Assembly (NCBI GenBank): GCA_018714685.1 | Contig: DVNC01000021.1 | Coordinates: forward strand, 12,693-76,692 | Length of the DNA stretch: 64,000 nt | Direction of reading: 5' to 3' | Source of the DNA: Candidatus Scatocola faecipullorum | GTDB taxonomy: Bacteria; Pseudomonadota; Alphaproteobacteria; RF32; CAG-239 | Shown: piece after piece, positions 9,089 through 57,041 of the stretch | Layout: every line of letters starts with the position of its first letter | Numbering within the stretch: position 1 is the stretch's first letter | The notes under the pieces: model-generated | What the model was told of the DNA's origin: nothing | Seen by the model: the letters and a program-made list of their open reading frames with translations, nothing else | Databases searched by the model: none | Program-made: the position numbers and the translations under genes

Positions 9089-10120
9089 TCAATCAATTAC
9101 TTTAATCGTAAATTTTCCCCCGGAAGTCGCGGATGAATCCTCCGATACCGGCATCTGATTGGTGCCGAGGTTAGGTTTTTCACCCTGACGTTTCTGCTCG
9201 AGGATATCAATAATCATATCCAGCTCGGCAGGAGAGGCGTATTGCAAAACAACTTTTCCGCCGCCTTGTTTGCTGGGAGAGATTTTGATGCGCAGTCCGA
9301 GATTCTTATTCAGGTCTTTTTCAATATCGGCCAAATCAGAATCTTTTTCTTTTTTCGGCGCTGCTTCTTTGGGGCCGCTTTTTTGTTTGGCGACCAATTC
9401 TTCAACTTGCCGCACGCTCAGGTCTTTGGCAACAATTTGCTGTGCCAAAGTTTCGGCATTTTCCAAGCCGACCAAAGCCCGGGCATGCCCTGCACTCAAT
9501 TTGCCTTCTTTTACCAGTTGCTGAACGCTTTCCGGAAGATTAAGCAAACGCAGGGTATTTGCAATATGGCTGCGCGATTTGCCGATGATCTGCGACAAAG
9601 CTTCCTGTGTGTGGGAAAATTCGTCAATCAGACGCTGCAAACCTTCAGCCTCTTCAATGGCCGAGAGATTTTCTCTCAATAAGTTTTCCACCAAGGCCAC
9701 TTCAAGGACTTCCTTATCGGAAAGATCCTTTTCAATGACGGGAACTTTATCAAGCCCGGCCAGTTTGGATGCCCGCCAACGGCGTTCACCCGCAATAATT
9801 TCAAAACCTATTCCGTCTCGGCGAACCAACAGCGGCTGCAATACACCTTTTTCTTTGATTGATTCAGCCAGAGACTGCAAAGCTTCCTGATCAAATTCCG
9901 TCCGGGGCTGAAATTTGCCCGGTTTAATCAAATCAATATCAACCAAATTGGCGGTTGCCGGAGCAGGGGCGAGGGAACTTAAATCTTCAACATTGTCCAA
10001 ATCCAAATCATCTTCCCCGAGAAGAGCGCCCAATCCGCGACCGAGACTTTTGCGTTTGTGATTGTGGCTGTCGGCGGAATCGCTGTTATTCAACATTTTA
10101 TCGATTTCATTTTCTAACAT
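9089..10120 (-). CDS. parB: Chromosome partitioning protein ParB
   Basis: ParB/Spo0J motif GERRWRA, HTH region, and synteny directly after parA. Confidence 0.9.
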   Translation of the reverse strand: MLENEIDKMLNNSDSADSHNHKRKSLGRGLGALLGEDDLDLDNVEDLSSLAPAPATANLVDIDLIKPGKFQPRTEFDQEALQSLAESIKEKGVLQPLLVRRDGIGFEIIAGERRWRASKLAGLDKVPVIEKDLSDKEVLEVALVENLLRENLSAIEEAEGLQRLIDEFSHTQEALSQIIGKSRSHIANTLRLLNLPESVQQLVKEGKLSAGHARALVGLENAETLAQQIVAKDLSVRQVEELVAKQKSGPKEAAPKKEKDSDLADIEKDLNKNLGLRIKISPSKQGGGKVVLQYASPAELDMIIDILEQKRQGEKPNLGTNQMPVSEDSSATSGGKFTIKVID

Positions 10121-10893
10121 GCCAACAATTCCTTCTCTCTTTTCAGAACTTCACCGGTCAGGCTGATATAGGCCTGAGAGCCCGGACATTTAAAATCATA
10201 AATCAAAACAGGCTTGCCGTGCGACGGCGCTTCGGAAATGCGGACATTCCGCGGAATGACGGTTTGATATACCTTTTTGCCGAAAAAGTTGCGCACGTCA
10301 TCTTCAACCATCTGGGTCAGATTGTTACGTTTGTCATACATTGTGAGGACAACACCCTGCAATTCAAGCTTCGGATTAAATTTCTTTTTAATCTGGTTGA
10401 TGTTGCGAATTAAATCGGTGATACCTTCAAGCGCCAGAAATTCACATTGCAGCGGAACGATTACGGCGTCGGCAGCAACTAACGCATTGATTGTTACCAG
10501 GCTCAAAGAAGGCGGACAGTCAATCAAAATATAATCGTAATTGACGGCATCTTTAAATAAAGCTTTTTTCAATGCAAATTCACGGTTTTCAATTTCAACC
10601 AGCTCAACTTCGGCTCCGGCCAAATCAGGTGACGACGGAACCAGAGAAAAATTCGGAATCTCCGTCCAGACAACGGCTTCAGAGATTCTTTTTTCTCCGA
10701 GCAGCACTTCATAGGAAGAGGCCATTCTTCCGCTTTTATTAATACCCATGGAAGTTGTCGCATTTCCCTGCGGATCCAGGTCAACGACCAGAACTTTCTT
10801 TCCGGCAGCAGCCATGGCTGTTGCAACATTGACCGTTGTTGTCGTTTTTCCAACACCGCCTTTGCGGTTGGCAATGGCAATAATTCTTGGCAT
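10114..10893 (-). CDS. parA: Chromosome partitioning ATPase ParA
   Basis: Deviant Walker A KGGVGKTTT. Sits in the soj/parA position next to rsmG. Confidence 0.95.
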   Translation of the reverse strand: MPRIIAIANRKGGVGKTTTTVNVATAMAAAGKKVLVVDLDPQGNATTSMGINKSGRMASSYEVLLGEKRISEAVVWTEIPNFSLVPSSPDLAGAEVELVEIENREFALKKALFKDAVNYDYILIDCPPSLSLVTINALVAADAVIVPLQCEFLALEGITDLIRNINQIKKKFNPKLELQGVVLTMYDKRNNLTQMVEDDVRNFFGKKVYQTVIPRNVRISEAPSHGKPVLIYDFKCPGSQAYISLTGEVLKREKELLAC

Positions 10894-11519
10894 TATTTAA
10901 CTCCCTTGCGTTTATTTAAATGTGTAATGATTAAGATGACGCCTTCGTCGCTTTGGCTGCTGGGAATAATCCGGCAGTCAAAATCCCAGTGTTTTTTTGC
11001 TTCAGCGATTTCTTCGGCATGTTTTTTTCCTTTGGGAAAAATACATACTGTATGAGACCCGCAAAAACGACTGGCATAATTTAACAGATTATCAAGAGCC
11101 GTCAGGGCGCGTGATGTAATAACATCAACTTTTTCGGCCGGCAGTTCTTCGATTCTCTTATTATAAATATTAACCTTGGTTCCGGTTAACTCAGCCACGT
11201 GCTTTAAATACAGTGTCTTTTTTCCAATGCTTTCTATCAGACTAACTTTTAAATACGGTGTTTTTTCCATCGCCATTATAGCCAGAACCATTCCGGGAAA
11301 TCCGGCTCCAGAGCCCAGATCGTATAAGGTTCTCGCATTAGAGGGAATGTACTGAAAAAGCTGCACTGAATCGAGAAAATGACGATTCCAGCCGTCGGCT
11401 AAAGATGATGAACTGACCAAATTAAACTTATTCTGCCATTCATTTAAAGAGGCTTCATAAGTTTTTAATTTGTCAATTGTTTCACGTGAAACATCATATG
11501 TGGTCGTATTTTTTTCCAT
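10893..11519 (-). CDS. rsmG: 16S rRNA m7G527 methyltransferase RsmG (GidB)
   Basis: SAM-binding DLGSGAGFPG motif, 208 aa, in the gidA-gidB-parA-parB neighbourhood. Carries a parS site near its 5' end. Confidence 0.9.
   Translation of the reverse strand: MEKNTTTYDVSRETIDKLKTYEASLNEWQNKFNLVSSSSLADGWNRHFLDSVQLFQYIPSNARTLYDLGSGAGFPGMVLAIMAMEKTPYLKVSLIESIGKKTLYLKHVAELTGTKVNIYNKRIEELPAEKVDVITSRALTALDNLLNYASRFCGSHTVCIFPKGKKHAEEIAEAKKHWDFDCRIIPSSQSDEGVILIITHLNKRKGVK
11478..11493. promoter_or_regulatory. parS: parS centromere site (perfect TGTTTCACGTGAAACA)
   Basis: Exact 16-bp palindrome matching the canonical parS consensus, inside the 5' end of rsmG. Confidence 0.8.
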
Positions 11520-11757: not shown

Positions 11758-12384
11758 TTATTCATTTCTGATGTTCAGAAGTTGATAAATATCACAGTCA
11801 CATTTGACCTCAAAATAAAGGCGCAGATTTTCAGCACAGCTAAAATGGGTTGTTAAAAATTCTTCCTGTACCGGATACCTTTCGGCCAAAGATCGGCAAC
11901 GATACTGTAAAGAACAGTTTTTACCCCGATCATTCATCATATCTGCCAATTGCAGAAGTTTATCGTAATCATCATATTCAATGTCTGAAATATAATTTTT
12001 GCAATGTAAGATATCCTGTCGTGCCTGAGGATATAACTCAGGATTAAAATCTTTATTCAGAAAACAATGTGTAACCGAGATGCGGCCGATTTCGTCCCAA
12101 CCTTGCTTTTTCATTAACTGATAGCCGGTCCAGCCATGAAAAACATTTTCACTTTTTTCATCTTTAATGTGACCGCAATCGTGCAGCAATCCTGACAGAT
12201 AAGCCCTTTCCGAGTTTAAATACGGTGTTTGAGAAGCTATTTTAGCCGCAATGTCGGCTACTGAAAAACAATGAGCCCGAAACTCTTTTTCCCATTCCGG
12301 ACGAAAAGGGAAGGGACTGCGGTTGCGTTCGGCAATTACATATTCAAAGAAGGCTAAGGCTTCTTGTTTTGACGGCAAAGACAT
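11758..12384 (-). CDS. HDIG-domain metal-dependent phosphohydrolase (paralog 1)
   Basis: HD-superfamily motifs H...GLLHDCGHIKDE...H...D. About 208 aa. Paralogous to 12387-13010 and 46733-47470. Confidence 0.6.
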   Translation of the reverse strand: MSLPSKQEALAFFEYVIAERNRSPFPFRPEWEKEFRAHCFSVADIAAKIASQTPYLNSERAYLSGLLHDCGHIKDEKSENVFHGWTGYQLMKKQGWDEIGRISVTHCFLNKDFNPELYPQARQDILHCKNYISDIEYDDYDKLLQLADMMNDRGKNCSLQYRCRSLAERYPVQEEFLTTHFSCAENLRLYFEVKCDCDIYQLLNIRNE

Positions 12385-12386
12385 GC

Positions 12387-13010
12387 TTAATCCACTCCCA
12401 AAAGCTTATAAATATCGCAGCAGCATCTTTTATCAAAGTACTTTTTTAGTTTTAATGCTTCGCGATATTTCTTTTTTACCAGCAAAGGAGGAATTTTGTA
12501 ATTGTTGCGGATGTTAAAAATTCTTTGCTTAATATTCAGCGTTACGCCGACGGATAAACGGTCACATAATTGTATCAAACGGTCATAATCATCAAAAGGA
12601 ACTTCCTGCAACAGTTTTTTACATTTGCGCATTTCAGACGGATTATAGCCGGCATATTCCTTTAAGTTAAGTTCCTGTTCATAAAAAGTGTGGGTCAGGG
12701 ATATTCTGGCCAATTCATCATATCCCAGTTTGCGTAAATATTTATACCCCTCCAGTCCATGGAATTTATCGGACATTTCATCGTTATAAACCAGTTTGCC
12801 GAAATCATGAAATAACCCCATAATATAGGCTTTTTCACCGTCTATCTCAGGCAATCGGGAAGCAATCATCTGAGCGGCTACCGCGACCATGGCGGCGTGA
12901 ATGCGTTCTCCTTTAGAACGTCCCAGTTCGAAACGCGATGATTCCGCACAGCGTTTACGCATGGTTTCTTCATAAAGTTTTAAAGCTTGCTGCATGGTCG
13001 GCATCGTCAT
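12387..13010 (-). CDS. HDIG-domain metal-dependent phosphohydrolase (paralog 2)
   Basis: GLFHDFGKLV HD motif. Architecture and length match the adjacent paralog. Confidence 0.6.
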   Translation of the reverse strand: MTMPTMQQALKLYEETMRKRCAESSRFELGRSKGERIHAAMVAVAAQMIASRLPEIDGEKAYIMGLFHDFGKLVYNDEMSDKFHGLEGYKYLRKLGYDELARISLTHTFYEQELNLKEYAGYNPSEMRKCKKLLQEVPFDDYDRLIQLCDRLSVGVTLNIKQRIFNIRNNYKIPPLLVKKKYREALKLKKYFDKRCCCDIYKLLGVD

Positions 13011-13015
13011 GGGTT

Positions 13016-14869
13016 TTACCTTTTTACATAACTGAGCACGGCGGTAACGGCGGCAGGCGTCACTCCGGGTATTCGTGATGCTTCTCCGATTGTCGCCGGG
13101 CGGACTTTAGACAGCTTTTGTACCATCTCCCGCGATAAACCGCCGATGAGAGCATAATCAATGTCTTCTTTGATTTTAAGTTTTTCGTCTTTTTGAAATA
13201 CATCAATATCTGCCTGTTGGCGTTTCAGATAACCGGCATATTTGGCTTCAATTTCGATTGCTTCGTAAACGTCATCGGGCATTGTCTGCAATTCCGGCCA
13301 TATTTGCGTTATTGTTTCACGTGAAACACCGTCATAAGACATGACGTTAAAAGCGCTTCTTTTCGTTCCGTCACGTTTCGTCTTTACGCCGAATTTATCC
13401 AACTCGTTCGGGTTGACAATCAATTTTTCACAAAGCTGACGATAATGATTTATCTGCTCATATTTGGCTTTAAATACAGTGTATCTATTTTTCCCGACGC
13501 AACCGATTTGATAGCCCAGTTCAGTTAAACGCGCATCGGCATTATCCGCACGCAACAACAGGCGATATTCGGAGCGGGAAGTAAACATACGATAAGGTTC
13601 GTCAACGCCCTTGGTAATCAAATCGTCAATCATTACGCCGATATAGGCCTGACTGCGATCAATCACAAATTCACGCCCTTTTCCTTCGGCATACAGCGCT
13701 GCATTAACACCGGCCAACAGTCCTTGCGCGGCAGCTTCTTCATAACCGGTCGTTCCGTTTATCTGTCCTGCCAGGTAAAGACCGGGAATCTTTTTAACCG
13801 CAAGTGTTCGGTTGAGTTCCTGCGGATCAACAAAGTCATATTCAATTGCATAAGCGTAACGGAGAATTTCAACATCTTCCAGCCCTTCAATCGTATGAAT
13901 AAACTGTTCTTGAACATCTGCGGGAAGAGACGTTGAAATGCCGTTCGGATAAACAACATCAGTATTCAGACCTTCGGGTTCCAAAAAAATCTGATGACTG
14001 GTGCGGTCGGCAAATTTTACCAGTTTGTCTTCAATACTGGGACAATAGCGCGGGCCGATGCCGGTAATTAAACCGGAAAACAAAGCACATTTGGAAAAAT
14101 TATCGCGAATAATCCGATGCGTGTTTTCATTGGTATGAGTAATAAAACACTGTATCTGCGGATTGGTAATTTTTTCCGTCAGATAAGAAAAAGGCTGCGG
14201 CGGGTTATCACCGTCTTGAGAAGACAATTTTTCCCAATGAATTGTTTTGCCGTTCAGACGGGCAGGGGTACCGGTTTTTAAACGCCCGACATTCAGCCCT
14301 TTCTGTTTTAAATACGGCGTTATACCCGTACAAGTGACATCACCGATACGTCCGCCGACGGAAGTTTCATGACCGACAAACATCACGCCGTTCAAAAAAG
14401 TTCCGGAAGTAAGAACAACCGCTTTTGCGGTTATTTGTGTTCCGTCGGCCAAAATAACACCGGATATTTTTACATCATCAAAAAGCAAGCCTTCGACCGG
14501 AGCTTCTATCAGCGTCAGGCCGGATTGTTCCCGCAGCGCGGCAAGCATATATTTTTTATAAAGTTCGCGGTCAGCCTGAGCACGCGGGCCGCGGACAGCC
14601 GGACCTTTAGACTGGTTTAACATACGAAACTGTATGCCTGCCTTATCAATAACCCGTCCCATCAAACCGTCCAGCGCATCAATTTCACGTACAAGATGCC
14701 CTTTACCCAGACCGCCGATGGCCGGATTACATGACATTTCGCCTATTGTGGCAATTTTATGGGTGATCAAAGCCGTTTTGGCTCCGATACGGGCTGCTGC
14801 GGCACAAGCTTCACAACCGGCATGGCCGCCGCCGACAACAATTACATCAAACTCCTGATCCGTTTTCAT
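13016..14869 (-). CDS. mnmG: tRNA uridine-5-carboxymethylaminomethyl modification enzyme MnmG (GidA)
   Basis: FAD-binding [14 protein letters not shown], conserved GRLKTGTP and [10 protein letters not shown] blocks, 617 aa. Confidence 0.97.
13313..13328. promoter_or_regulatory. parS: parS centromere site (perfect TGTTTCACGTGAAACA)
   Basis: Second exact copy of the 16-bp parS palindrome, inside mnmG. Confidence 0.8.
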
Positions 14870-15504: not shown

Positions 15505-16848
15505 TTATTTACCGATACAAAATGACCCGAAAATTTTATCGAGAATGTCATCTACCTCAATCCGTCCGGTGATTTTCCCCAAAGCGCGGGCCGCCAGGCG
15601 AACATCTTCGGCAGCCAATTCAATTTCTTTTCGCAGTGTAAAAGTTTCCAACGCTTCTACAGTTTCTTTCAAAGCTTCACGGTAACGGGCACGGGTTATC
15701 AGCAAATTTGAATTAGAGGTAAAGCGGTTTTCAATCCGTTCGGTAATGGCCTGAAGCAGCTGCTCCAATCCCTGACGAGGTTTAGCGGCTATGGTCAGAC
15801 AGCCTTCCTGTCGCAGCGAAGAAATCCTTTCTGCCGACAAGCGGTCGGTTTTATTGGCAACCAAAAGCATTTTACCGGAAATTGTTTTTTTCAGATTATC
15901 AAAGATATGAACAGTGTCTTGTGATGCATCGAACAAACATATCACAAGGTCGGCTTCGTTAATTTTATGGTAAGCAATTTCTATGCCTTTCTTTTCAATG
16001 GCATCTTCTACTTCACGCAGACCGGCAGTGTCGGTAAACATAACCGGATAACCTTTCAAATCCAGGTGAACATCAACCGCATCGCGGGTGGTTCCGGCAA
16101 TATCGGAAACGATGGCCGCTTCACGATTAACAACAGCATTCAGCAAACTTGATTTACCGGCATTCGGCGGGCCGACAATAACAACGCGAAAACCTTCGCG
16201 CAGCCTTTCGCCGATAGTGTCGCCGGACAGATGTGCTTTAATTGCTTCCTTGAGTTTAAATACAGTGTCTTCAAGTTTAAATACGGTGTCTTCCGGAATT
16301 TCTTCGTCAGGAAAATCAATATAAGCTTCCAGATGAGCCATCACGGTTAAAAGTTCTTCCCGCCAGCTTTCATAAAGGTTTTTTAAGCCGCCTTCCATCT
16401 GCCGCATGGCATATTTCTGCTGTTCAGCGGTTTCGGCATCTATCAGATCGGCTAATCCCTCGGCCTGAGTCAAATCCATTTTGCCGTTGTAAAAAGCCCG
16501 TTTGGAATATTCTCCGGGTTCAGCCATGCGGAAACCTTCCAACCGTGACAATGATGAAAGGACTCCGGAAATTACGGCTTTGGAGCCGTGAATCTGCAAT
16601 TCAACGATATCTTCCCCGGTGAACGAATGAGGCGCCTTAAAATACAGCAAAAGACACTTATCCAGTACCTGTTTCTCGGGAACAGACAACAAATCGGTAA
16701 AATAGGCATAACGGGGTTTGATGCCCGAAGGCGAAAGGCGGGTCATTTGCCCAATAATCTGAAAAGCCCGATCGCCTGATATGCGGATGACGGCGACGCC
16801 CGATTTGCCGAAAACGGTTGAGAGTGCATAAATGGTCTGATTATCCAT
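15505..16848 (-). CDS. mnmE: tRNA modification GTPase MnmE (TrmE)
   Basis: G-domain motifs GPPNAGKSSLLN, DTAGLR, NKTD, and the C-terminal ...CIGK. Contains an in-frame EDTVFKL-EDTVFKL duplication. Confidence 0.95.
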   Translation of the reverse strand: MDNQTIYALSTVFGKSGVAVIRISGDRAFQIIGQMTRLSPSGIKPRYAYFTDLLSVPEKQVLDKCLLLYFKAPHSFTGEDIVELQIHGSKAVISGVLSSLSRLEGFRMAEPGEYSKRAFYNGKMDLTQAEGLADLIDAETAEQQKYAMRQMEGGLKNLYESWREELLTVMAHLEAYIDFPDEEIPEDTVFKLEDTVFKLKEAIKAHLSGDTIGERLREGFRVVIVGPPNAGKSSLLNAVVNREAAIVSDIAGTTRDAVDVHLDLKGYPVMFTDTAGLREVEDAIEKKGIEIAYHKINEADLVICLFDASQDTVHIFDNLKKTISGKMLLVANKTDRLSAERISSLRQEGCLTIAAKPRQGLEQLLQAITERIENRFTSNSNLLITRARYREALKETVEALETFTLRKEIELAAEDVRLAARALGKITGRIEVDDILDKIFGSFCIGK

Positions 16849-17057
16849 TTTATATTCCTGTCTGTAACTTAAAACCGGCTTAAGTATAATCGGAAAAGGT
16901 AAAAATACGATAAAAAAACACTAATTTAAATAAAGGCCTAAATTCGGCTTTCAGAGAGGTTTTTTACTTTTGCTTAAGTGTTTCCCTATAAAGTAGGTAA
17001 AATTCGTTTGTGCGAGCTTCCTGCGGACTCGTTATTTTTCTACCGAAGGTGTTAATT

Positions 17058-18269: not shown

Positions 18270-19553
18270 TTAGCTGTTCATGGTATTGAAGAAATCCTGA
18301 TTGTCTTTGCTTTGTTTGAGCTTTTCAAGCAAAAACTCCATACCGTCCGTCATTCCCATCTGCATCAGCACACGGCGCAGAACCCACATTTTGGACAAGG
18401 TGGCCTTGTCAACCAGCAGTTCTTCCTTACGGGTGCCGGAGCGGGTAATATCAATCGTCGGGAAGAGGCGTTTATCGGTCAGTTTTCGATCAAGAATGAT
18501 TTCTGAGTTGCCGGTTCCTTTGAATTCTTCAAAGATAACTTCGTCCATGCGGGAACCGGTATCAATCAGAGCCGTGGCGATAATGGTCAGCGATCCGCCT
18601 TCTTCAACATTGCGGGCTGCACCGAGAATGCGTTTCGGCCGCTGGAGAGCATTTGCATCGACACCGCCGGTCAAAACCTTGCCGGAAGAAGGGATTACCG
18701 TATTGTAAGCGCGACCCAAACGGGTAATCGAATCGAGCAGAATGACAACGTCTTTTTTATTTTCAACCAGGCGTTTGGCTTTTTCAATCACCATTTCAGC
18801 TACCTGAACATGGCGCGAAGCCGGTTCATCAAAGGTAGAAGAAATTACTTCACCTTTCACCGAACGAGTCATATCGGTTACTTCCTCGGGACGTTCGTCA
18901 ATCAAAAGCACCATCAGATAGGCTTCAGGATGATTGGCGGCAATCGCATGGGCAATATTCTGCAGCATTACGGTTTTACCTGTGCGCGGCGGGGCAACAA
19001 TCAGCCCGCGCTGGCCTTTGCCCTGCGGTGAAATCAAATCAATCACGCGGCAGGTATAGTCTTTGTCGCCGCAGATAATATCAAAATTAAGCTTTTCCGT
19101 CGGGTAAAGCGGCGTCAGATTGTCAAAATTAACCCTAAGTTTTGATTTTTCGGGATCGTCAAAATTAATGGCGTTAATCTTGGTTAAGGCAAAATAACGT
19201 TCATTGTCTTTCGGACCGCGAATTTCGCCTTCAACAGTATCGCCGGTGCGCAGGCCAAATTTTTTAACCTGGGAAGGCGAAACATATATGTCATCAGGGC
19301 CGGCAAGATAGTTTGATTCGGCGGAACGGAGAAAACCGAAACCGTCCGGCATGACTTCAATTGTGCCTTCGCCGTAGATAATTTTATCGTCATCGGCGAG
19401 TTTTTTTAGAATAGCAAACATCAAATCCTGTTTGCGCATGGATGAAGCATCTTCAATCCCTAAATCTTCAGCCTGAGTTAACAACTCGGTAGGAGACTTT
19501 TGTTTGAGCTCTTTTAAATTCATGGGAACCTTAAATATGTAGGATATTGTCAA
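18270..19553 (-). CDS. rho: Transcription termination factor Rho
   Basis: N-terminal RNA-binding domain, Walker [13 protein letters not shown], 427 aa, very high conservation. Confidence 0.97.
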
Positions 19554-20033
19554 AACAGAAATAAGAACTATATGATATAGTATAAGTTTATATATGCTTT
19601 AAATCGAAAACTGTCAAATAAAGATTGGATATTTTTTCAGGGCAGATTTATGCACATTCCGACCTGCCAATTTAAAATTTAAAAAATTATGTAGTAGATT
19701 GTATATGCCTGTGACTCTTGTGGATAAATTTTGAGCCACAGAGTTATCCAGAAGTTAACAGTTTGTTAATAAAGCTGTTAACCGAAAATAAACAATCGTT
19801 AACGAATCGTTAAAACTTTTCCGGACTCAAAATGTAAACTGCAAAATTAAGTTTTTGTTAATAACTTTTTTATCCACCGGCCGGGGATGAAAAAGCTGCT
19901 TGTGCGTAAGTCAGTATATTAGATTTTACTTTATGGTGATTACTTTGTATAAATTGGAAAAAGGGCTCAGTTATACACAGGAAAAGCCTGATTTGTTGAT
20001 AAGTGAGTCAAACCTTTGATTTGAGGATTTTTT
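19554..20033. promoter_or_regulatory. Candidate chromosomal replication origin (oriC) and rho leader region
   Basis: 480-bp AT-rich intergenic region. Perfect DnaA box at 19719-19727 (tgtggataa = TTATCCACA). One-mismatch boxes at 19744-19752 (ttatccaga) and 19870-19878 (ttatccacc). Three TTAA-N7-TTAA (CtrA-box-like) motifs at 19755-19769, 19799-19813 and 19847-19861. Flanked by rho and coaE-dnaQ, as around the alphaproteobacterial Cori. Confidence 0.55.
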
Positions 20034-20618
20034 ATGAAGCTTGCAGCCATTACCGGTTCAATCGGGTGCGGAAAAACAACCCTTTCCAAAATTGTCCGCC
20101 GTCTGGGATATGTTGTTTATGATATCGACGGTTGGGTTCGCCGTTTGTATTATCAAAAGGATTTTATCAAGGTTATTGCGGCACATTTTCCGGAAGTTAT
20201 GGAAGGGGAAAAGGTCAACAAACGGAAATTGAGAAATCTGGTTTTCGGGGATAATGCCCGGTTGAAAGTTTTGGAAAGCCTGATTCATCCTTTTTTGAAG
20301 CAGACTCTGATGAATGTCCGCCGTCGAAATGCCCGCCGGGCTGATTTGTTTTTTATGGATGTTGCCCTGTTGTTCGAAATGGGCTGGGATAAATACTGCG
20401 ATTATATCGTGGTGGCTGATGTTGATTATGAGACACAAAAAATGAGAGTTATGCGGCGGGATAACATTTCAGCAGCGGATTTTGACAAGATTAACCGGAT
20501 TCAGATGGACAATGCGGCCAAAAAAGTTTTGGCCGATGTGATTATTAATACGGATAAGCCGATTAATCTGCTGAAGGTTGAGCTGCTGGCGATGATTGAA
20601 GAAATAGAGGGATGCTGA
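20034..20618 (+). CDS. coaE: Dephospho-CoA kinase
   Basis: ITGSIGCGKTT P-loop at the N-terminus, 194 aa. Confidence 0.9.
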   Translation: MKLAAITGSIGCGKTTLSKIVRRLGYVVYDIDGWVRRLYYQKDFIKVIAAHFPEVMEGEKVNKRKLRNLVFGDNARLKVLESLIHPFLKQTLMNVRRRNARRADLFFMDVALLFEMGWDKYCDYIVVADVDYETQKMRVMRRDNISAADFDKINRIQMDNAAKKVLADVIINTDKPINLLKVELLAMIEEIEGC

Positions 20619-20619
20619 G

Positions 20620-21336
20620 ATGGTCAGAGAGATTGTATTCGATACGGAAACAACGGGTTTTAATGTCAATGAAGGAGACCGTCTGGTAGAAATCGGCGCG
20701 GTGGAACTGATTAACCATATTCCGACCGGGGTTACTTACCACCAATATATAAACCCTGAGAGGGAAGTTCCGGAAGATGCTTTCAAAGTTCACGGTTTGA
20801 GTTATGATTTTTTGAAAGATTATCCGACTTTTCGCCAGGTTGCGGATGAGTGGCTTGAGTTTGTCGGTGATGCCGTTCTGGTAGCGCATAACGCTTCATT
20901 CGATATCGGCTTTTTGAACGGTCAGCTGAAAGAACTGGACAAGCCTTTGTTCACCTGGGACAGGGTTGTGGATACCCTGGAAATCGCCCGCAACCTGTTT
21001 CCCGGAGCGCGCGTTAATTTGGACGCTTTGTGCCGCCGTTACGGTATTGACAACAGTGAGCGCACGCTGCACGGGGCGCTGCTTGACGCTGATTTGCTGG
21101 CCAAGATTTATCTGGAACTGCTCGGCGGGCAGGAACCCAGTATGCTCAAGGAGGAGAAAAAGGTTTCCCGGGGAACGGTTTTTGCCGACAGTTCCGCGCA
21201 AAAGAGGGTTTTTCGCGAAGCTCGTTCCTTTCCGTTAAGCGAAGAGGAAAAGCAGCTGCATTTGGATTTTCTGGCAAATAATATCAAAGAGGCCATTTGG
21301 ACGGCAAGTGCAGAACCGGAAAAAGCCGAAGGCTGA
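20620..21336 (+). CDS. dnaQ: DNA polymerase III epsilon subunit (3'-5' exonuclease)
   Basis: Exo I motif VFDTETTG, Exo II HNASFD, Exo III HGALLDA. Confidence 0.9.
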   Translation: MVREIVFDTETTGFNVNEGDRLVEIGAVELINHIPTGVTYHQYINPEREVPEDAFKVHGLSYDFLKDYPTFRQVADEWLEFVGDAVLVAHNASFDIGFLNGQLKELDKPLFTWDRVVDTLEIARNLFPGARVNLDALCRRYGIDNSERTLHGALLDADLLAKIYLELLGGQEPSMLKEEKKVSRGTVFADSSAQKRVFREARSFPLSEEEKQLHLDFLANNIKEAIWTASAEPEKAEG

Positions 21337-24850: not shown

Positions 24851-26248
24851 ATGACTAACGAAGAATTAAAGAAAATCTGGTCAGAAAAATTTGCGGTTGT
24901 TCCGCAGGTTTTGGAAAATATGAAACAGGTTCAGGCGGCGGCAACGGCATTTAACACCAATGTAGACGCAGTGGTTAAAATCAGCGGCGCGAAAATTGCC
25001 GAGCTGGCGGCTGGTTTGGGAATGGATTTGGCCGAGCTGGAAGATGTGCGGCAGACTAAGCTGGATTCAGGCAAAGACGTGGTTAAAGGCATTTTCAAAT
25101 GTTTTACCAAAGGGATTGCCGAAGAATGGCTGACCGAAGACAAACAAGTTTATGACTGGATGGTAAACAATCTGGGGTATGACCGTCTGCAAATGGGCGG
25201 TCAGGGCGGAATTGTGGCCAATGTTCTGGCGGTTACCGGCGTCAACAAAGTCTATGCCCATGCCAATTCTCTGCCGAAGTTACAGGCCCAACAGTTTTTA
25301 GAATTGGACAATTTGGTTTCTTTTGATGAAAAAGGGGCCGAAAAACCGGCTTATCTGATTAACCGGGAAGTTGACATTCCTTTGATACACTGGATTATCG
25401 AATTTGACCGGAATGATACGGTGCATATCGGCGGCAAAGATTTCAAATGTCCGAAATCGAACCGTTTTATTGCCACGTATGATCCGTTAAATCTGCATTT
25501 GGTTATGGATCGTCATTTTATTGATGCAACCGGCCGCCGCAAAATGGATTATGTGGTTTTATCCGGTTTTCATGCTCTGACGGAACACAACGACGGCGTA
25601 CGCCTGCAGGAAGGCGCTTTACCGATTATTGAAAACTGGAAAAAGCAGGGAGATATCGTTCATTTGGAGATTGCCTCCACGCAGGATATTGCGGTGCGCA
25701 AGTCGATTATCAAATCGATTGCCCCGATTGTGGATTCAATCGGCATTAACGAGCGTGAAGCTATTGACATTTTGGAGGTTTCCGGATGTGAAAAACAGGC
25801 GGAAGCCTGCAATGCACGGACAAACAGCGTTAATATGTTTGAAGCATTGATGTTGATAAAGAAAATTATCAAAGCGCCGCGCATTCAACTGCATATGTTC
25901 GGTTTGTATATGACGCTGCAGGATAAAGGCTTTAAAATTACACCGGAAGCCAATTTGCGCGGAATGATGCTGGCTGCGACCGTTGCCGCCAGCAAAGCCG
26001 GCACCGGAAACATTAACAAAAAAGAAAATCTGCTGTGGGCTCACGGCGAGCAGGTTTCTGATGTGGGATTAAAAGAATTGTCTGATTTGGCTAACCATTT
26101 GCACAAACCGGAGTTAACGGAAACCGGCATTACCGAGGTTGACGGTTTTGATTTGATAGCCCTGCCGACTATTTTGGTAGAAAAACCGCTGACGCTGGTA
26201 GGCATGGGTGATACGATTTCATCGCTTTCACTGATAGGTTCAAGGTAA
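24851..26248 (+). CDS. ADP-dependent sugar kinase family protein (ADP-glucokinase/ADP-phosphofructokinase-like, ribokinase superfamily)
   Basis: ADP_PFK_GK-type motifs: NTNVDAV near the N-terminus, MGGQGGIVANVLA, HLEIAS, VDSIGINEREA, and the C-terminal GXGD catalytic motif VGMGDTISS. Confidence 0.65.
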   Translation: MTNEELKKIWSEKFAVVPQVLENMKQVQAAATAFNTNVDAVVKISGAKIAELAAGLGMDLAELEDVRQTKLDSGKDVVKGIFKCFTKGIAEEWLTEDKQVYDWMVNNLGYDRLQMGGQGGIVANVLAVTGVNKVYAHANSLPKLQAQQFLELDNLVSFDEKGAEKPAYLINREVDIPLIHWIIEFDRNDTVHIGGKDFKCPKSNRFIATYDPLNLHLVMDRHFIDATGRRKMDYVVLSGFHALTEHNDGVRLQEGALPIIENWKKQGDIVHLEIASTQDIAVRKSIIKSIAPIVDSIGINEREAIDILEVSGCEKQAEACNARTNSVNMFEALMLIKKIIKAPRIQLHMFGLYMTLQDKGFKITPEANLRGMMLAATVAASKAGTGNINKKENLLWAHGEQVSDVGLKELSDLANHLHKPELTETGITEVDGFDLIALPTILVEKPLTLVGMGDTISSLSLIGSR

Positions 26249-54495: not shown

Positions 54496-55398
54496 ATGCT
54501 TTGGATTATCGACGGCCTGATTTACGGTTTTTTTACGGCGTTATATACGCTGGTGAACCAGCATTATAAGTTTAACGGTTATTTGCTGGGAATCTGGCGC
54601 GGGTTCGGAATATCTTTTTTCTTTCTGCCGTTTTTGTTTTTTCTGCCGGTTCCCGATGATGCTTATTATTATTTTCTGCTGATTTTTCAAGGTTTTTTAA
54701 TCGGCGTATATGATTCACATCTGTTTTTTGCTTCGGCAGATTACGGAGCGGGGCCGACTTCCCGGGTTATGGCTTTGTCGGCGCTGATTACAACGATTTT
54801 CTGGTGGTTTTTGACCCCGCATTTGTTTTGGGGTTTATTGCAGAACGCAACGGTGTTTATGAGCCTAATCTTAGTTTTGTTCGGGTTTACGGTGAGCTAT
54901 TGGCAAATGGTGCAGTCGCCGGTTTCCAAAGCGTTGGTTTGGTATATGTTTCCGGTTGTTTTTGCTTTTGCGGGAATGAGCATTATTACCAAAGAAATTG
55001 CCCTGCACGGTTCAAACGCCTGGCAGGGTGTGGCCTATTATCTGACCGTGGCAACGTTTGTCAGCGGCTGTTATAACAGTTATTGGTATGCCAAAACGGT
55101 TAAACCCGGTTTAAAGGGCTTTTTCAAAAACGTTTTTGAATGGAAACTGGTTAAGGCCGGTTTGTATGTCGTCAGTTTCAGTTGGGCTCTGATTACGGCC
55201 AAAACACTGGCTTTGCGGATTGCTCCCAATCCGGGATATGTGATTGCTTTGCTGCTGACGTCGCCGATTTTTGTTTTTGTGCTGAACAGGTATCGTAAAG
55301 TTCCGGACAATATTTCGGTTAAGGCCGGTTTTTCGATGATTTTTTTTCTTTTTCTGCTTTTGCTGCTGGTGAACGGTAATTACGGAGTGATTGACTAA
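54496..55398 (+). CDS. Hypothetical polytopic inner-membrane protein (300 aa)
   Basis: About 9 hydrophobic helices and no catalytic motif. Confidence 0.4.
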   Translation: MLWIIDGLIYGFFTALYTLVNQHYKFNGYLLGIWRGFGISFFFLPFLFFLPVPDDAYYYFLLIFQGFLIGVYDSHLFFASADYGAGPTSRVMALSALITTIFWWFLTPHLFWGLLQNATVFMSLILVLFGFTVSYWQMVQSPVSKALVWYMFPVVFAFAGMSIITKEIALHGSNAWQGVAYYLTVATFVSGCYNSYWYAKTVKPGLKGFFKNVFEWKLVKAGLYVVSFSWALITAKTLALRIAPNPGYVIALLLTSPIFVFVLNRYRKVPDNISVKAGFSMIFFLFLLLLLVNGNYGVID

Positions 55399-57041
55399 CG
55401 GCAGAGTTCTTCGATGATTTTGTTGAGAAGCAAAAAACCCCGGTTGGCGGCGCGCAGGCTGTGCTTGTCTTCAAACAGAAGTTTTTGCCGGATTAAGCTT
55501 TGTCTGGCTTTGTCATTGACAAAGCCGGTCAGTTCCAATCCGCATTGGCGGCGGAAGTTTTCTTTGTTGATTCCTTCACGGATGCGCAATCCCATAATAA
55601 TCAATTCTTCCGCCCGTTCCTGCGGGGTCAGTTCTTCCAGTTGCCGATGGTGGGTCGAGGCATAAATTTTATCGGTTGTTTTGATGCGTCCGTGGGCGGC
55701 GGGGCCAATCCCGAGATAGTTTTGTCCGCGCCAATAGGCCAGATTATGGATTGATTCATAACCGGGGTGGGCAAAGTTGGAAACTTCATATTGCGGATAG
55801 CCTTTTGTTGCCAAAAATTCCTGTGTCAGCGCATAGAGTTCGGCTGCCGGTTCATCATCCATCGGTTTGATGCCTTTGCGGGCAAAAAAGGTGCCTTCTT
55901 CGATGGTCAGTTGGTAGAGCGAGAGATGTTTCAGGCCGAGTTCGCTTATCTGGTTCAGTTCTTGTTTCCAGGCTTCCGCGGTTTGTCCGGGCCGGGCGTA
56001 AATCAGGTCGGCAGAGTGGTTGTCAAACAGCCGTGTTACTTCGTCAACGGCGTGGAGTGCCCGGCTTAAATTATGGGTTCGTCCGAGGAATTTAAGGTCT
56101 TTGTCGTTCAAAGCCTGAATGCCTAAAGACAGACGGTTGATGCCGGCCAGTCGGAGGTCGGCAAAGAGGTTGGGGCGATTGGTGTTGGGGTTCGCTTCAA
56201 GTGAAATTTCCACCTGTTTTGTTGTCGGCCAGAGTTTGAAAATATGATTAATTACTTTTTCAATGTACTGCGGTTCAATCAATGAGGGCGTGCCGCCGCC
56301 GAAAAAAATACTCTGGACGGTTTGTTTGGCCGTCAGGTCGTGATACCAGTTTAAGTCGTCCAGATAACCGTCAATAATTTGTTTTTGATCAACATGCTTG
56401 TCAACTTTGCTGAAAAAATCGCAATAGGGGCATTTGCTTAAGCAGTAGGGCCAGTGAATGTAAACAGACAGGGGAACAATGATTTTATTGGTCTTCTGCA
56501 GGCGTCTTCCGGTGCTCGCGTCCTCACGTACGTCTGTGTACGCTGCGGTTCTGCGCTCCGTGGAGCCACCAGCATAAGCCTCACTAAAATCATTGTTGAA
56601 AAAAGCATTGGTCTTCTGCGGGTGTCTTCCGGTGCTCGCGTCTTCATGTAATTCCCGTGAGGCATAATTCTCTTCTAACCTCCCCTTAATATTAAGGGGA
56701 GGAACGGTAGGGATTAAGTTTGTTATTTGTGAAAGACAGCCTTCAATATTTTCCAGAATATCATTATTCCAAAAGCGAAGAATTTTACAACCGCGTTTTT
56801 TTATATAATTATCGCGAATATCATCCTGATGATTATCATTATGTTGCCCGCCGTTAATTTCAATTATTAATTTGAGCGAAGCACAATAAAAATCGACAAT
56901 ATATTTGTTATCAAAAACATATTGTCTTTGAAAACGTACTCCTAATTGTCGTTTGCGCAGTTTTTGCCATAACAATTTTTCAGCATTTGTTTGGTTGCTG
57001 CGCAATTGACGGGAGTAAGTTATCAGTTGCTTTTCCATCAC
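55395..57041 (-). CDS. hemW: Radical-SAM heme chaperone HemW (HemN-like) with N-terminal DUF559 endonuclease-like extension
   Basis: C-terminal ~360 aa match HemW/YggW ([20 protein letters not shown] radical-SAM CxxxCxxC, GGGTPS). N-terminal ~125 aa is a complete DUF559 domain (…[18 protein letters not shown]…IVDFYC…IIEINGGQH…), joined to HemW by a repeat-containing linker. Confidence 0.8.
56488..56700. repeat. Intragenic direct repeats (2 x 43 nt) and a 24-nt perfect palindrome in the hemW 5' extension
   Basis: ttggtcttctgcaggcgtcttccggtgctcgcgtcctcacgta at 56488-56530 and ttggtcttctgcgggtgtcttccggtgctcgcgtcttcatgta at 56608-56650. Each unit translates as EDASTGRxxQKTN. Palindrome cctccccttaatattaaggggagg at about 56679-56702. 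Confidence 0.7.

Follow-up and report, generated by a model that had tools for sequence, protein, structure and literature searches.

The chromosomal replication origin of Caulobacter crescentus, Cori, lies between a parAB-gidAB-mnmE-rho side and a coaE-dnaQ side and contains several DnaA boxes, mostly imperfect, several CtrA boxes of the form TTAA-N7-TTAA that are interleaved with and abut the DnaA boxes, GANTC sites, an AT-rich stretch and the promoter of a flanking gene (PMC6393856, PMC1914354). DUF299 and hemE are the published boundary genes of Cori and of the Rickettsia origin (PMC1914354, PMC6393856). The origins of Rickettsia prowazekii, Wolbachia, Ehrlichia and Anaplasma, which have been predicted or tested in vitro, are AT-rich intergenic regions of 380-620 bp, and there too boundary genes have been altered by rearrangement, with COG1253 in place of COG1806 in Wolbachia (PMC1914354). 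Here we analysed a stretch of 64,000 nucleotides (64 kb, hereafter the window) from Candidatus Scatocola faecipullorum and, applying the criteria used for Cori-type origins (Brassinga 2002; Ioannidis 2007), found that the gap between rho and coaE is very probably the chromosomal replication origin, of the Cori type in both position and design. Elements of this kind are known, and this one adds a lineage from which none had been described. A preliminary description of the sequence had proposed a probable oriC at this place, and the proposal is now supported by the clustering of motifs, by their footprint of conservation in nine species, by synteny, by parS sites nearby and by a step in GC skew.

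Each of the Cori features listed above has its counterpart in the window: the same genes on the two sides, several mostly imperfect DnaA boxes, TTAA-N7-TTAA pairs among and against them, GANTC sites, an AT-rich stretch and a promoter of a flanking gene inside the gap (PMC6393856, PMC1914354). The locus differs from Cori in that hemE, DUF299/COG1806, maf, aroE and hemH are absent, with rho and coaE flanking the gap directly, in having three CtrA boxes where Cori has five, and in having no convincing IHF site; it is also an origin predicted from sequence. The DnaA boxes of the gap are nearer the Escherichia coli consensus TTATNCACA than the Caulobacter G and W boxes are. In E. coli oriC a cluster of 9-mer DnaA boxes stands beside an AT-rich unwinding element, and a box cluster with an AT-rich element is likewise predicted here on sequence grounds; the chromosomal contexts differ, and the gap has CtrA boxes and GANTC, whereas E. 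coli oriC has no CtrA boxes and is under Dam/SeqA control via GATC. With the Rickettsia, Wolbachia, Ehrlichia and Anaplasma origins the gap shares TTATNCACA boxes, TTAA-N7-TTAA CtrA boxes and an AT content above that of the genome (PMC1914354). Those origins keep hemE as one boundary, whereas neither canonical boundary gene is present here, and they belong to obligate intracellular lineages, unlike the free-living gut commensal clade of the window species.

DnaA boxes and CtrA-type boxes cluster in the rho-coaE gap

The gap spans positions 19524-20033 and has 31% GC, against 47% for the whole window. Its left flank is rho (18270-19523, minus strand; NCBIfam equivalog, 688 bits), and its right flank is formed by coaE (20034-20618, plus strand) and dnaQ (20620-21336, plus strand), both NCBIfam equivalogs. 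The preliminary description had correctly called the gap AT-rich and had given its length as 480 bp; because the likeliest start of rho is the ATG at 19523 (MNLKELK...), the length is 510 bp. No open reading frame of more than 41 amino acids was found in it. The gap makes up 0.8% of the window, yet it holds six of the 16 DnaA boxes that match TTATCCACA with at most one mismatch and three of the six exact TTAA-N7-TTAA motifs. Of the window's 16 intergenic regions that are 120 bp or longer, only the gap bears a cluster of DnaA boxes; in the other 15 the count is never higher than one. In 20,000 dinucleotide-preserving shuffles of the gap sequence itself, six boxes were never reached (mean 0.19), nor were the three exact TTATNCACA matches that the gap contains (mean 0.038), and three or more TTAA-N7-TTAA motifs (mean 0.157) had P = 4.5e-4.

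The individual motifs were examined in an alignment of the homologous gaps of ten species, the window species and nine relatives, to which the column identities below refer. Box 1 (TTATGCACA, 19648-19656, plus strand; previously placed near 19649) has an identity of 0.94 and reads TTAT[G/C/A]CACA in nine of the ten. Box 2 is the perfect box TTATCCACA at 19719-19727 on the minus strand; it is only moderately conserved (0.87), being variable in relatives, for example TGTGTATTA in the close relative L011. Box 3 (19732-19740, plus strand) is degenerate in the window species, where it reads TGAGCCACA with two mismatches; at this position most relatives have TTATCCACA, TTATGCACA or a sequence close to these. 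Box 3b (TTATCCAGA, 19744-19752, plus strand) is of the TTATCCAAA type in relatives (0.84). On the far side of the gap, box 4 (TTATACACA, 19971-19979, plus strand; 0.94) and box 5 (TTATCAACA, 19994-20002, minus strand; 0.91) are convergent across a 14-bp spacer. A further DnaA-like box (TTATCCACC, 19870-19878, plus strand) is confined to the window species and is unconserved (0.56). The boxes best conserved in the relatives are those at 19648, 19971 and 19994. The preliminary description had reported the perfect box, the one-mismatch boxes at 19744 and 19870 and the box near 19649, all of which we recovered; boxes 4 and 5, each with one mismatch, had been missed.

Between the two groups of boxes lie the three exact TTAA-N7-TTAA motifs, present at the three positions reported before. 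CtrA-type site 1 (TTAACAGTTTGTTAA, 19755-19769) starts 3 bp past box 3b, and its half-sites have identities of 0.92 and 0.88, compared with 0.60 for the spacer. Site 2 (TTAACGAATCGTTAA, 19799-19813) corresponds to TTAATAAATTATTAA at the equivalent place in relatives, 23 bp after site 1. It sits in an 11-bp tandem duplication, AATCGTTAACG/AATCGTTAAAA (19788-19813), with an extra TTAA at 19778; duplication of an 11-mer that contains TTAA creates a TTAA-N7-TTAA site. Site 3 (TTAAGTTTTTGTTAA, 19847-19861) has half-sites at 0.88 and 0.97 and a spacer at 0.60. Two copies of the 9-mer TGTTAATAA, at 19764-19772 and 19856-19864, are the only ones in the 64 kb, and each forms the 3′ half of one of these motifs. 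Because the 9-mer differs at just two positions from TGTGGATAA, the complement of the DnaA box, an overlap between CtrA and DnaA sites is possible.

An AT-only run beginning ATTTAAAATTTAAAAAATTAT lies between boxes 1 and 2 (19670-19699) and, judged from nearest-neighbour energies, is a candidate unwinding element. In eight of the ten species it belongs to the three 30-bp windows of lowest stability in the gap, and no other such position is shared between species. It is followed by a conserved block, TTGTATATGCCTGTG (19699-19713), with an identity of 0.83 against a background of 0.59. A second block, TGTGCGTAAGT at 19901-19911 (0.92), reads TGTTAATAAGT in relatives (TGTTAATAAAT in L095); by this comparison its TTAA half-site, present in all nine relatives, appears to have been lost in the window species. 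A GANTC site (GACTC, 19824-19828) stands between CtrA-type sites 2 and 3, where GAnTC is kept in about seven to eight of the ten species, and three further GANTC sites, at 19713, 19804 and 20005, bring the number in the gap to four. The single match of the gap to the IHF consensus (WATCAN5WTR / WATCAANNNNTTR), AATCAAAGGTTTG at 20009-20021 on the minus strand, adjoins the coaE ribosome-binding site and is kept in about four of the ten species in the alignment as read by eye.

The rho promoter lies within the gap at 19589-19617 on the minus strand, with a -35 element TTGACA (19612-19617), a 17-nt spacer and a -10 element TATATA (19589-19594); it is kept in eight relatives and is directed away from the box cluster. 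An inverted repeat, ACTATA-TGA-TATAGT (19567-19581), lies close to where rho transcription should start; its equivalents in relatives differ in sequence (GTTGCG-AA-CGCAAC, TTACG-AA-CGTAA, ATCACG-AA-CGTGAT and ACATT-GA-AATGT). The repeat may form a hairpin in the rho leader or serve as an operator; for this covarying repeat RNAalifold, run on the rho leader, returned no consensus structure.

The motifs are conserved in register across related species

A homologue search with the CoaE of the window was filled by same-species variants of 98-100% identity, and the relatives were therefore collected with the CoaE of L011, which gave nine further species whose CoaE proteins are 50-60% identical to that of the window and to one another. 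Eight of the nine share the layout of rho, a gap of 430-530 bp and coaE-dnaQ; in the ninth, L099, a NUDIX gene takes the place of rho. The ten aligned gaps have a common order of elements: box 1, the AT-only stretch, the conserved block, boxes 2 (minus), 3 (plus) and 3b (plus), the TTAA-N7-TTAA sites, in most species GAnTC, the TGTTAATAAGT block and the convergent boxes 4 and 5. Two to four TTAA-N7-TTAA sites occur at homologous places in eight of the nine relatives, and their start-to-start spacings, 23 and 44-45 bp, are constant in five to six species. Column identities are 0.87-0.94 for boxes 1, 2, 4 and 5 and 0.88-0.97 for the TTAA half-sites, against 0.60 for the N7 spacers and 0.59 for the remaining columns. 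Conservation of boxes and half-sites, with spacers at background, is the footprint expected for protein-binding sites. Within the window species, the gaps of 11 strains differ at only seven columns, one of which changes the first half-site of site 1, giving TTAG-N7-TTAA in two of the strains.

The locus keeps the wider gene order of alphaproteobacterial origins

From left to right the window carries parB-parA-rsmG, two HD proteins, mnmG and mnmE on the minus strand, a HAD hydrolase gene and a small open reading frame on the plus strand, rho on the minus strand, the gap, and coaE-dnaQ on the plus strand. parB-parA-rsmG occupies 9089-11519 (minus strand), and two perfect copies of parS (TGTTTCACGTGAAACA, 11478-11493 and 13313-13328) lie 6.2-8.3 kb from the gap, in keeping with the earlier remark that parAB and parS stand a few kb away. 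The two HD/HDOD-domain genes, in tandem at 11758-13010, are inserted between rsmG and mnmG.

For comparison, a scan of species-representative genomes for Rho gave 80 loci among the matches listed, to which the following counts refer; only one of them, L011, was a close relative. coaE lies 2.4-7.5 kb (median 4.3 kb) upstream of rho in 57 of the 79 other alphaproteobacterial loci. A DnaA-box cluster could be made out in 32 loci, and in 29 of these the densest box window falls between the two genes. Exact TTAA pairs are few near the box cluster, numbering 0-1 in most of the 79. Brevundimonas (L083) has the order dnaQ-coaE-aroE-maf-DUF299 / gap / hemE-hemH-...-rho, and Nisaea (L068) has dnaQ-coaE-maf-DUF299 / gap / hemE-...-rho. 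These orders and the position of the clusters agree with what the preliminary description had stated of Caulobacter and its relatives, namely an origin between hemE and the coaE/dnaQ block.

hemE and COG1806 (DUF299), the genes that literally define the boundaries of a Cori-type origin, are absent from the gap and from its flanks in the window. The wider frame is present, with dnaQ-coaE on one side and rho-mnmE-mnmG-rsmG-parAB on the other, and it is this frame that brackets DUF299/hemE in L083 and L068. The absence of the boundary genes is accordingly a matter of gene loss and not of a different location: the genes between coaE and rho are gone in this clade, and the box cluster is directly flanked by rho and coaE, as had been noted from the window.

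The window and L100 have mnmE-mnmG-rsmG to the rho side of the gap; in L011, L094, L095, L098, L099 and L101 these genes are found to the dnaQ side. In those six of the nine relatives the rho-gap-coaE-dnaQ unit is therefore inverted in one piece with respect to mnmE-mnmG, and its genes point away from the gap in both arrangements, the pattern expected of origin-centred inversions, of which this compact unit is a tidy example. Beyond the unit, the flanks vary widely between species; in L096 integrase genes adjoin rho. One contig of the scan labelled 'Patescibacteria group bacterium' (L023) carries an alphaproteobacterial-type Rho (76% identical) and is probably mis-binned.

A model for initiation and its control

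From these features we infer sites of DnaA binding, CtrA binding, unwinding and repression. DnaA would bind a left group, consisting of box 1 and the divergent and tandem boxes 2, 3 and 3b, and a right group, the convergent boxes 4 and 5, and would then open the AT-only stretch at 19670-19699. The three TTAA-N7-TTAA sites between the two groups would be occupied by the response regulator CtrA, and by analogy with Caulobacter the phosphorylated form would block DnaA, silencing initiation for some of the cell cycle or in one type of cell. Outward-firing promoters would lie within the origin, that of rho and probably also that of coaE. We lean towards CtrA as the protein that binds the TTAA pairs, with less assurance than we have in the origin itself.

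Related gut and rumen species encode CtrA

CtrA was sought in metagenomes with an AT-biased back-translation of the peptide IIDVFICK as a DNA pattern, which yielded about 85 full-length homologues. Among them was a tight clade on gut and rumen contigs, with members 79-100% identical to each other and 63-71% identical to the Caulobacter CtrA sequence used as reference. When one member served as the query of a homologue search, more than 100 relatives that their source records call CtrA were recovered, including one from 'Azospirillum sp. 51_20' on a 2.02-Mb contig, and two proteins of the clade scored 401-404 bits on the NCBIfam CtrA equivalog (cut-off 350). The clade carries the stretch DEPELKIIDVFICKLRKKL, which we take to be identical to that of Caulobacter CtrA and, from the OmpR/PhoB fold, to cover the recognition helix. 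In tetranucleotide profile the contigs bearing these genes come nearer to the origin-bearing loci than any others of the set, at 0.79-0.90 compared with 0.95-0.98 for same-species controls, a similarity that is suggestive only of their belonging with the origin clade. Searches for genes shared between the CtrA contigs and the origin loci found only a distant mnmG, and a look-up of one clade CtrA (P0219) gave no sample in common with an origin locus.

The promoters of the clade ctrA genes contain a perfect 16-bp palindrome, GTTAATAATTATTAAC (TTAA-N6-TTAA), about 80-95 nt upstream of ctrA (L164, L134, L184, L187, L188, L179, L232 and others), and several also have TTAAC(A) about 21 bp downstream of it, roughly at the -35 position. 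This arrangement suggests autoregulation of ctrA with N6 rather than N7 spacing. These promoters show that TTAAC-type sites matter in the clade, and they leave room for a different or additional reader of the repeats. In gut relatives ctrA is found beside the flagellar export genes fliI/fliJ (fliJ-fliI-ctrA, L232-L240) and beside an Fe-superoxide dismutase gene (sodB-ctrA-DUF179-dsbD, L222-L231); its place next to fliI/fliJ indicates that at least some gut members of the clade are probably flagellated.

GANTC is under-represented about two-fold in the window, with 123 sites against 227±16 expected from shuffles, which hints at a GANTC-specific methyltransferase, either CcrM or part of a restriction-modification system. 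Depletion in the window with four sites in the gap is a pattern typical of genomes with CcrM.

GC skew and alternative explanations

Expressed on the plus strand, per-gene third-position skew stays around 0 in all genes to the left of the gap (rho, +0.13) and is +0.11 to +0.49 in nearly all those to its right; the step, from about 0 to +0.2..+0.45, falls exactly between rho and coaE. Skew at four-fold sites is +0.06 (plus-strand genes) and +0.17 (minus-strand genes) on the left and +0.27 and +0.37, respectively, on the right, or +0.12 and +0.32 after correction for gene strand; in an extra 9 kb leftward (L091, 1-10000) the skew is also near 0. The polarity at the gap is right for an origin, and a reversal of sign is missing in the window species. 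Sister species differ from it in showing a normal sign change at the homologous gap: the skew rises across the gap in nine of nine relatives and changes sign in most, the skew of rho is negative in those with rho beside the gap (n = 8) except L100, and that of coaE, in window orientation, is positive in all nine. The preliminary description had proposed GC skew as a check on the origin; within the window this check is passed only in part, with a step at the gap, no change of sign and an all-base minimum away from the gap.

Several of the observations weigh against the reading of the gap as a CtrA-controlled origin. The all-base cumulative G-C minimum lies at 16,677, 2.8 kb from the gap, on a measure dominated by the run of minus-strand genes. 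The mnmE-HAD gap (16849-17009) near that minimum was considered as an alternative origin and ruled out, having zero DnaA boxes; a TTAA-N7-TTAA motif at 16869 within it is unconserved in relatives and probably due to chance. In addition, the step in skew has no sign change over at least 28 kb on the rho side, where a bidirectional origin would reverse it. The plus strand is G-rich at four-fold sites on both sides of the gap, and we see a slim chance that this reflects a rho-side arm often replicated by a rightward fork, with strongly unequal or largely unidirectional replication from the Cori-type origin, or else a displacement of the effective origin in the recent evolutionary past. Another reading of the skew, which stays at or above zero on the plus strand throughout the 28 kb examined leftward, is that the gap is no more than a divergent promoter region for rho and coaE that carries regulatory sites for DnaA and CtrA, DnaA boxes being known in promoters too; the active origin of the species would then lie at some other place, such as beyond 28 kb leftward. 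We hold this to be improbable, given the sharp step at the gap and its equivalent in all nine relatives, the five to seven conserved boxes with a conserved AT-only stretch, the canonical alphaproteobacterial position, the adjacent parS sites and the lack of any other box cluster in the 64 kb. That the cluster is a chance product of AT-rich intergenic DNA, in which 31% GC raises the rate of TTAA-based motifs, has next to no probability: the shuffles stand against it, the motifs keep their register across nine species while the spacers diverge, and we regard it as already refuted.

The remaining points bear on CtrA as the reader of the TTAA repeats in an origin that is otherwise as described. 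A ctrA gene elsewhere in the genome had been named as a further check in the preliminary description; bona fide ctrA was found in sister gut and rumen species, as set out above, and was not retrieved for the window species. It was not found in the window by tblastn with a Caulobacter CtrA query, nor was that of the window species found among the 120 best relatives of a clade CtrA or in three cluster listings, and the species was not among the members of the clusters of neighbour genes (sodB, DUF179) of 'Azospirillum sp. 51_20'. L100 (GCA_045634545.1, 5471-6000) keeps the DnaA boxes and has no TTAA-N7-TTAA at homologous places, and its lineage may no longer have the origin under CtrA control. 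The clade ctrA promoters carry N6 and not N7 spacing, so the N7 repeats of the origin may have another reader. The origins of Sinorhizobium meliloti and Brucella abortus, which we take to lie in the same neighbourhood, to be hemE-linked and to depend on DnaA boxes, differ from the gap in that it has three consensus CtrA boxes conserved in its clade. For S. meliloti the origin has been reported to be without CtrA motifs or binding, and B. abortus CtrA has been reported not to bind the origin (PMC4433202, PMC2877005). Some other protein might act on the inverted repeat (A/G)TTAAC...GTTAAT or on TGTTAATAA, sites 1 and 3 also reading as the palindromic TTAAC-N5-GTTAA, or the 9-mers, confined to the gap within the 64 kb and two positions away from TGTGGATAA, might be weak DnaA sites or elements of a coaE promoter. 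We think this unlikely, while allowing it an appreciable chance of being right. The half-sites stand in an 11-bp register and their spacers are free to vary, exactly as in the published CtrA consensus (PMC1914354). The clade encodes a CtrA in which DEPELKIIDVFICKLRKKL is presumably unchanged from Caulobacter, and the TTAAC at about -35 in its ctrA promoters is placed as we take to be typical of CtrA-activated promoters.

Host distribution, significance and other genes of the window

The exact Rho and CoaE of the window occur in thousands of human-gut metagenome assemblies, and also on contigs of 1.5-2.04 Mb. In the public assembly collection that was searched, 8,813 indexed blocks contain the Rho sequence in identical form. 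The same proteins are filed as 'Azospirillum sp. CAG:260', 'Azospirillum sp. 47_25' and 'Candidatus Scatocola faecipullorum', and the clade is filed under Rhodospirillales. The analysis places the probable origin of an alphaproteobacterium that is among the most prevalent of the uncultured ones in the human gut, a position useful for metagenomic estimates of growth rate by peak-to-trough ratio and for orienting metagenome-assembled genomes. To our knowledge, binding of CtrA to an origin has been established only for Caulobacter and, in vitro, for Rickettsia. CtrA boxes in an origin are not universal, yet two to four consensus boxes are found clade-wide here, which makes the locus a modestly interesting extension and not a new kind of system. 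The clade is a candidate for direct control of initiation by CtrA in a gut commensal and, by extension, for a state in which cells do not replicate.

No tRNA genes were found in the 64-kb window. Elsewhere in it, positions 55395-57041 encode a HemN-like radical-SAM protein with an N-terminal DUF559 domain, and 24851-26248 carries a gene of the ADP-dependent glucokinase/phosphofructokinase family, which is unusual for alphaproteobacteria.

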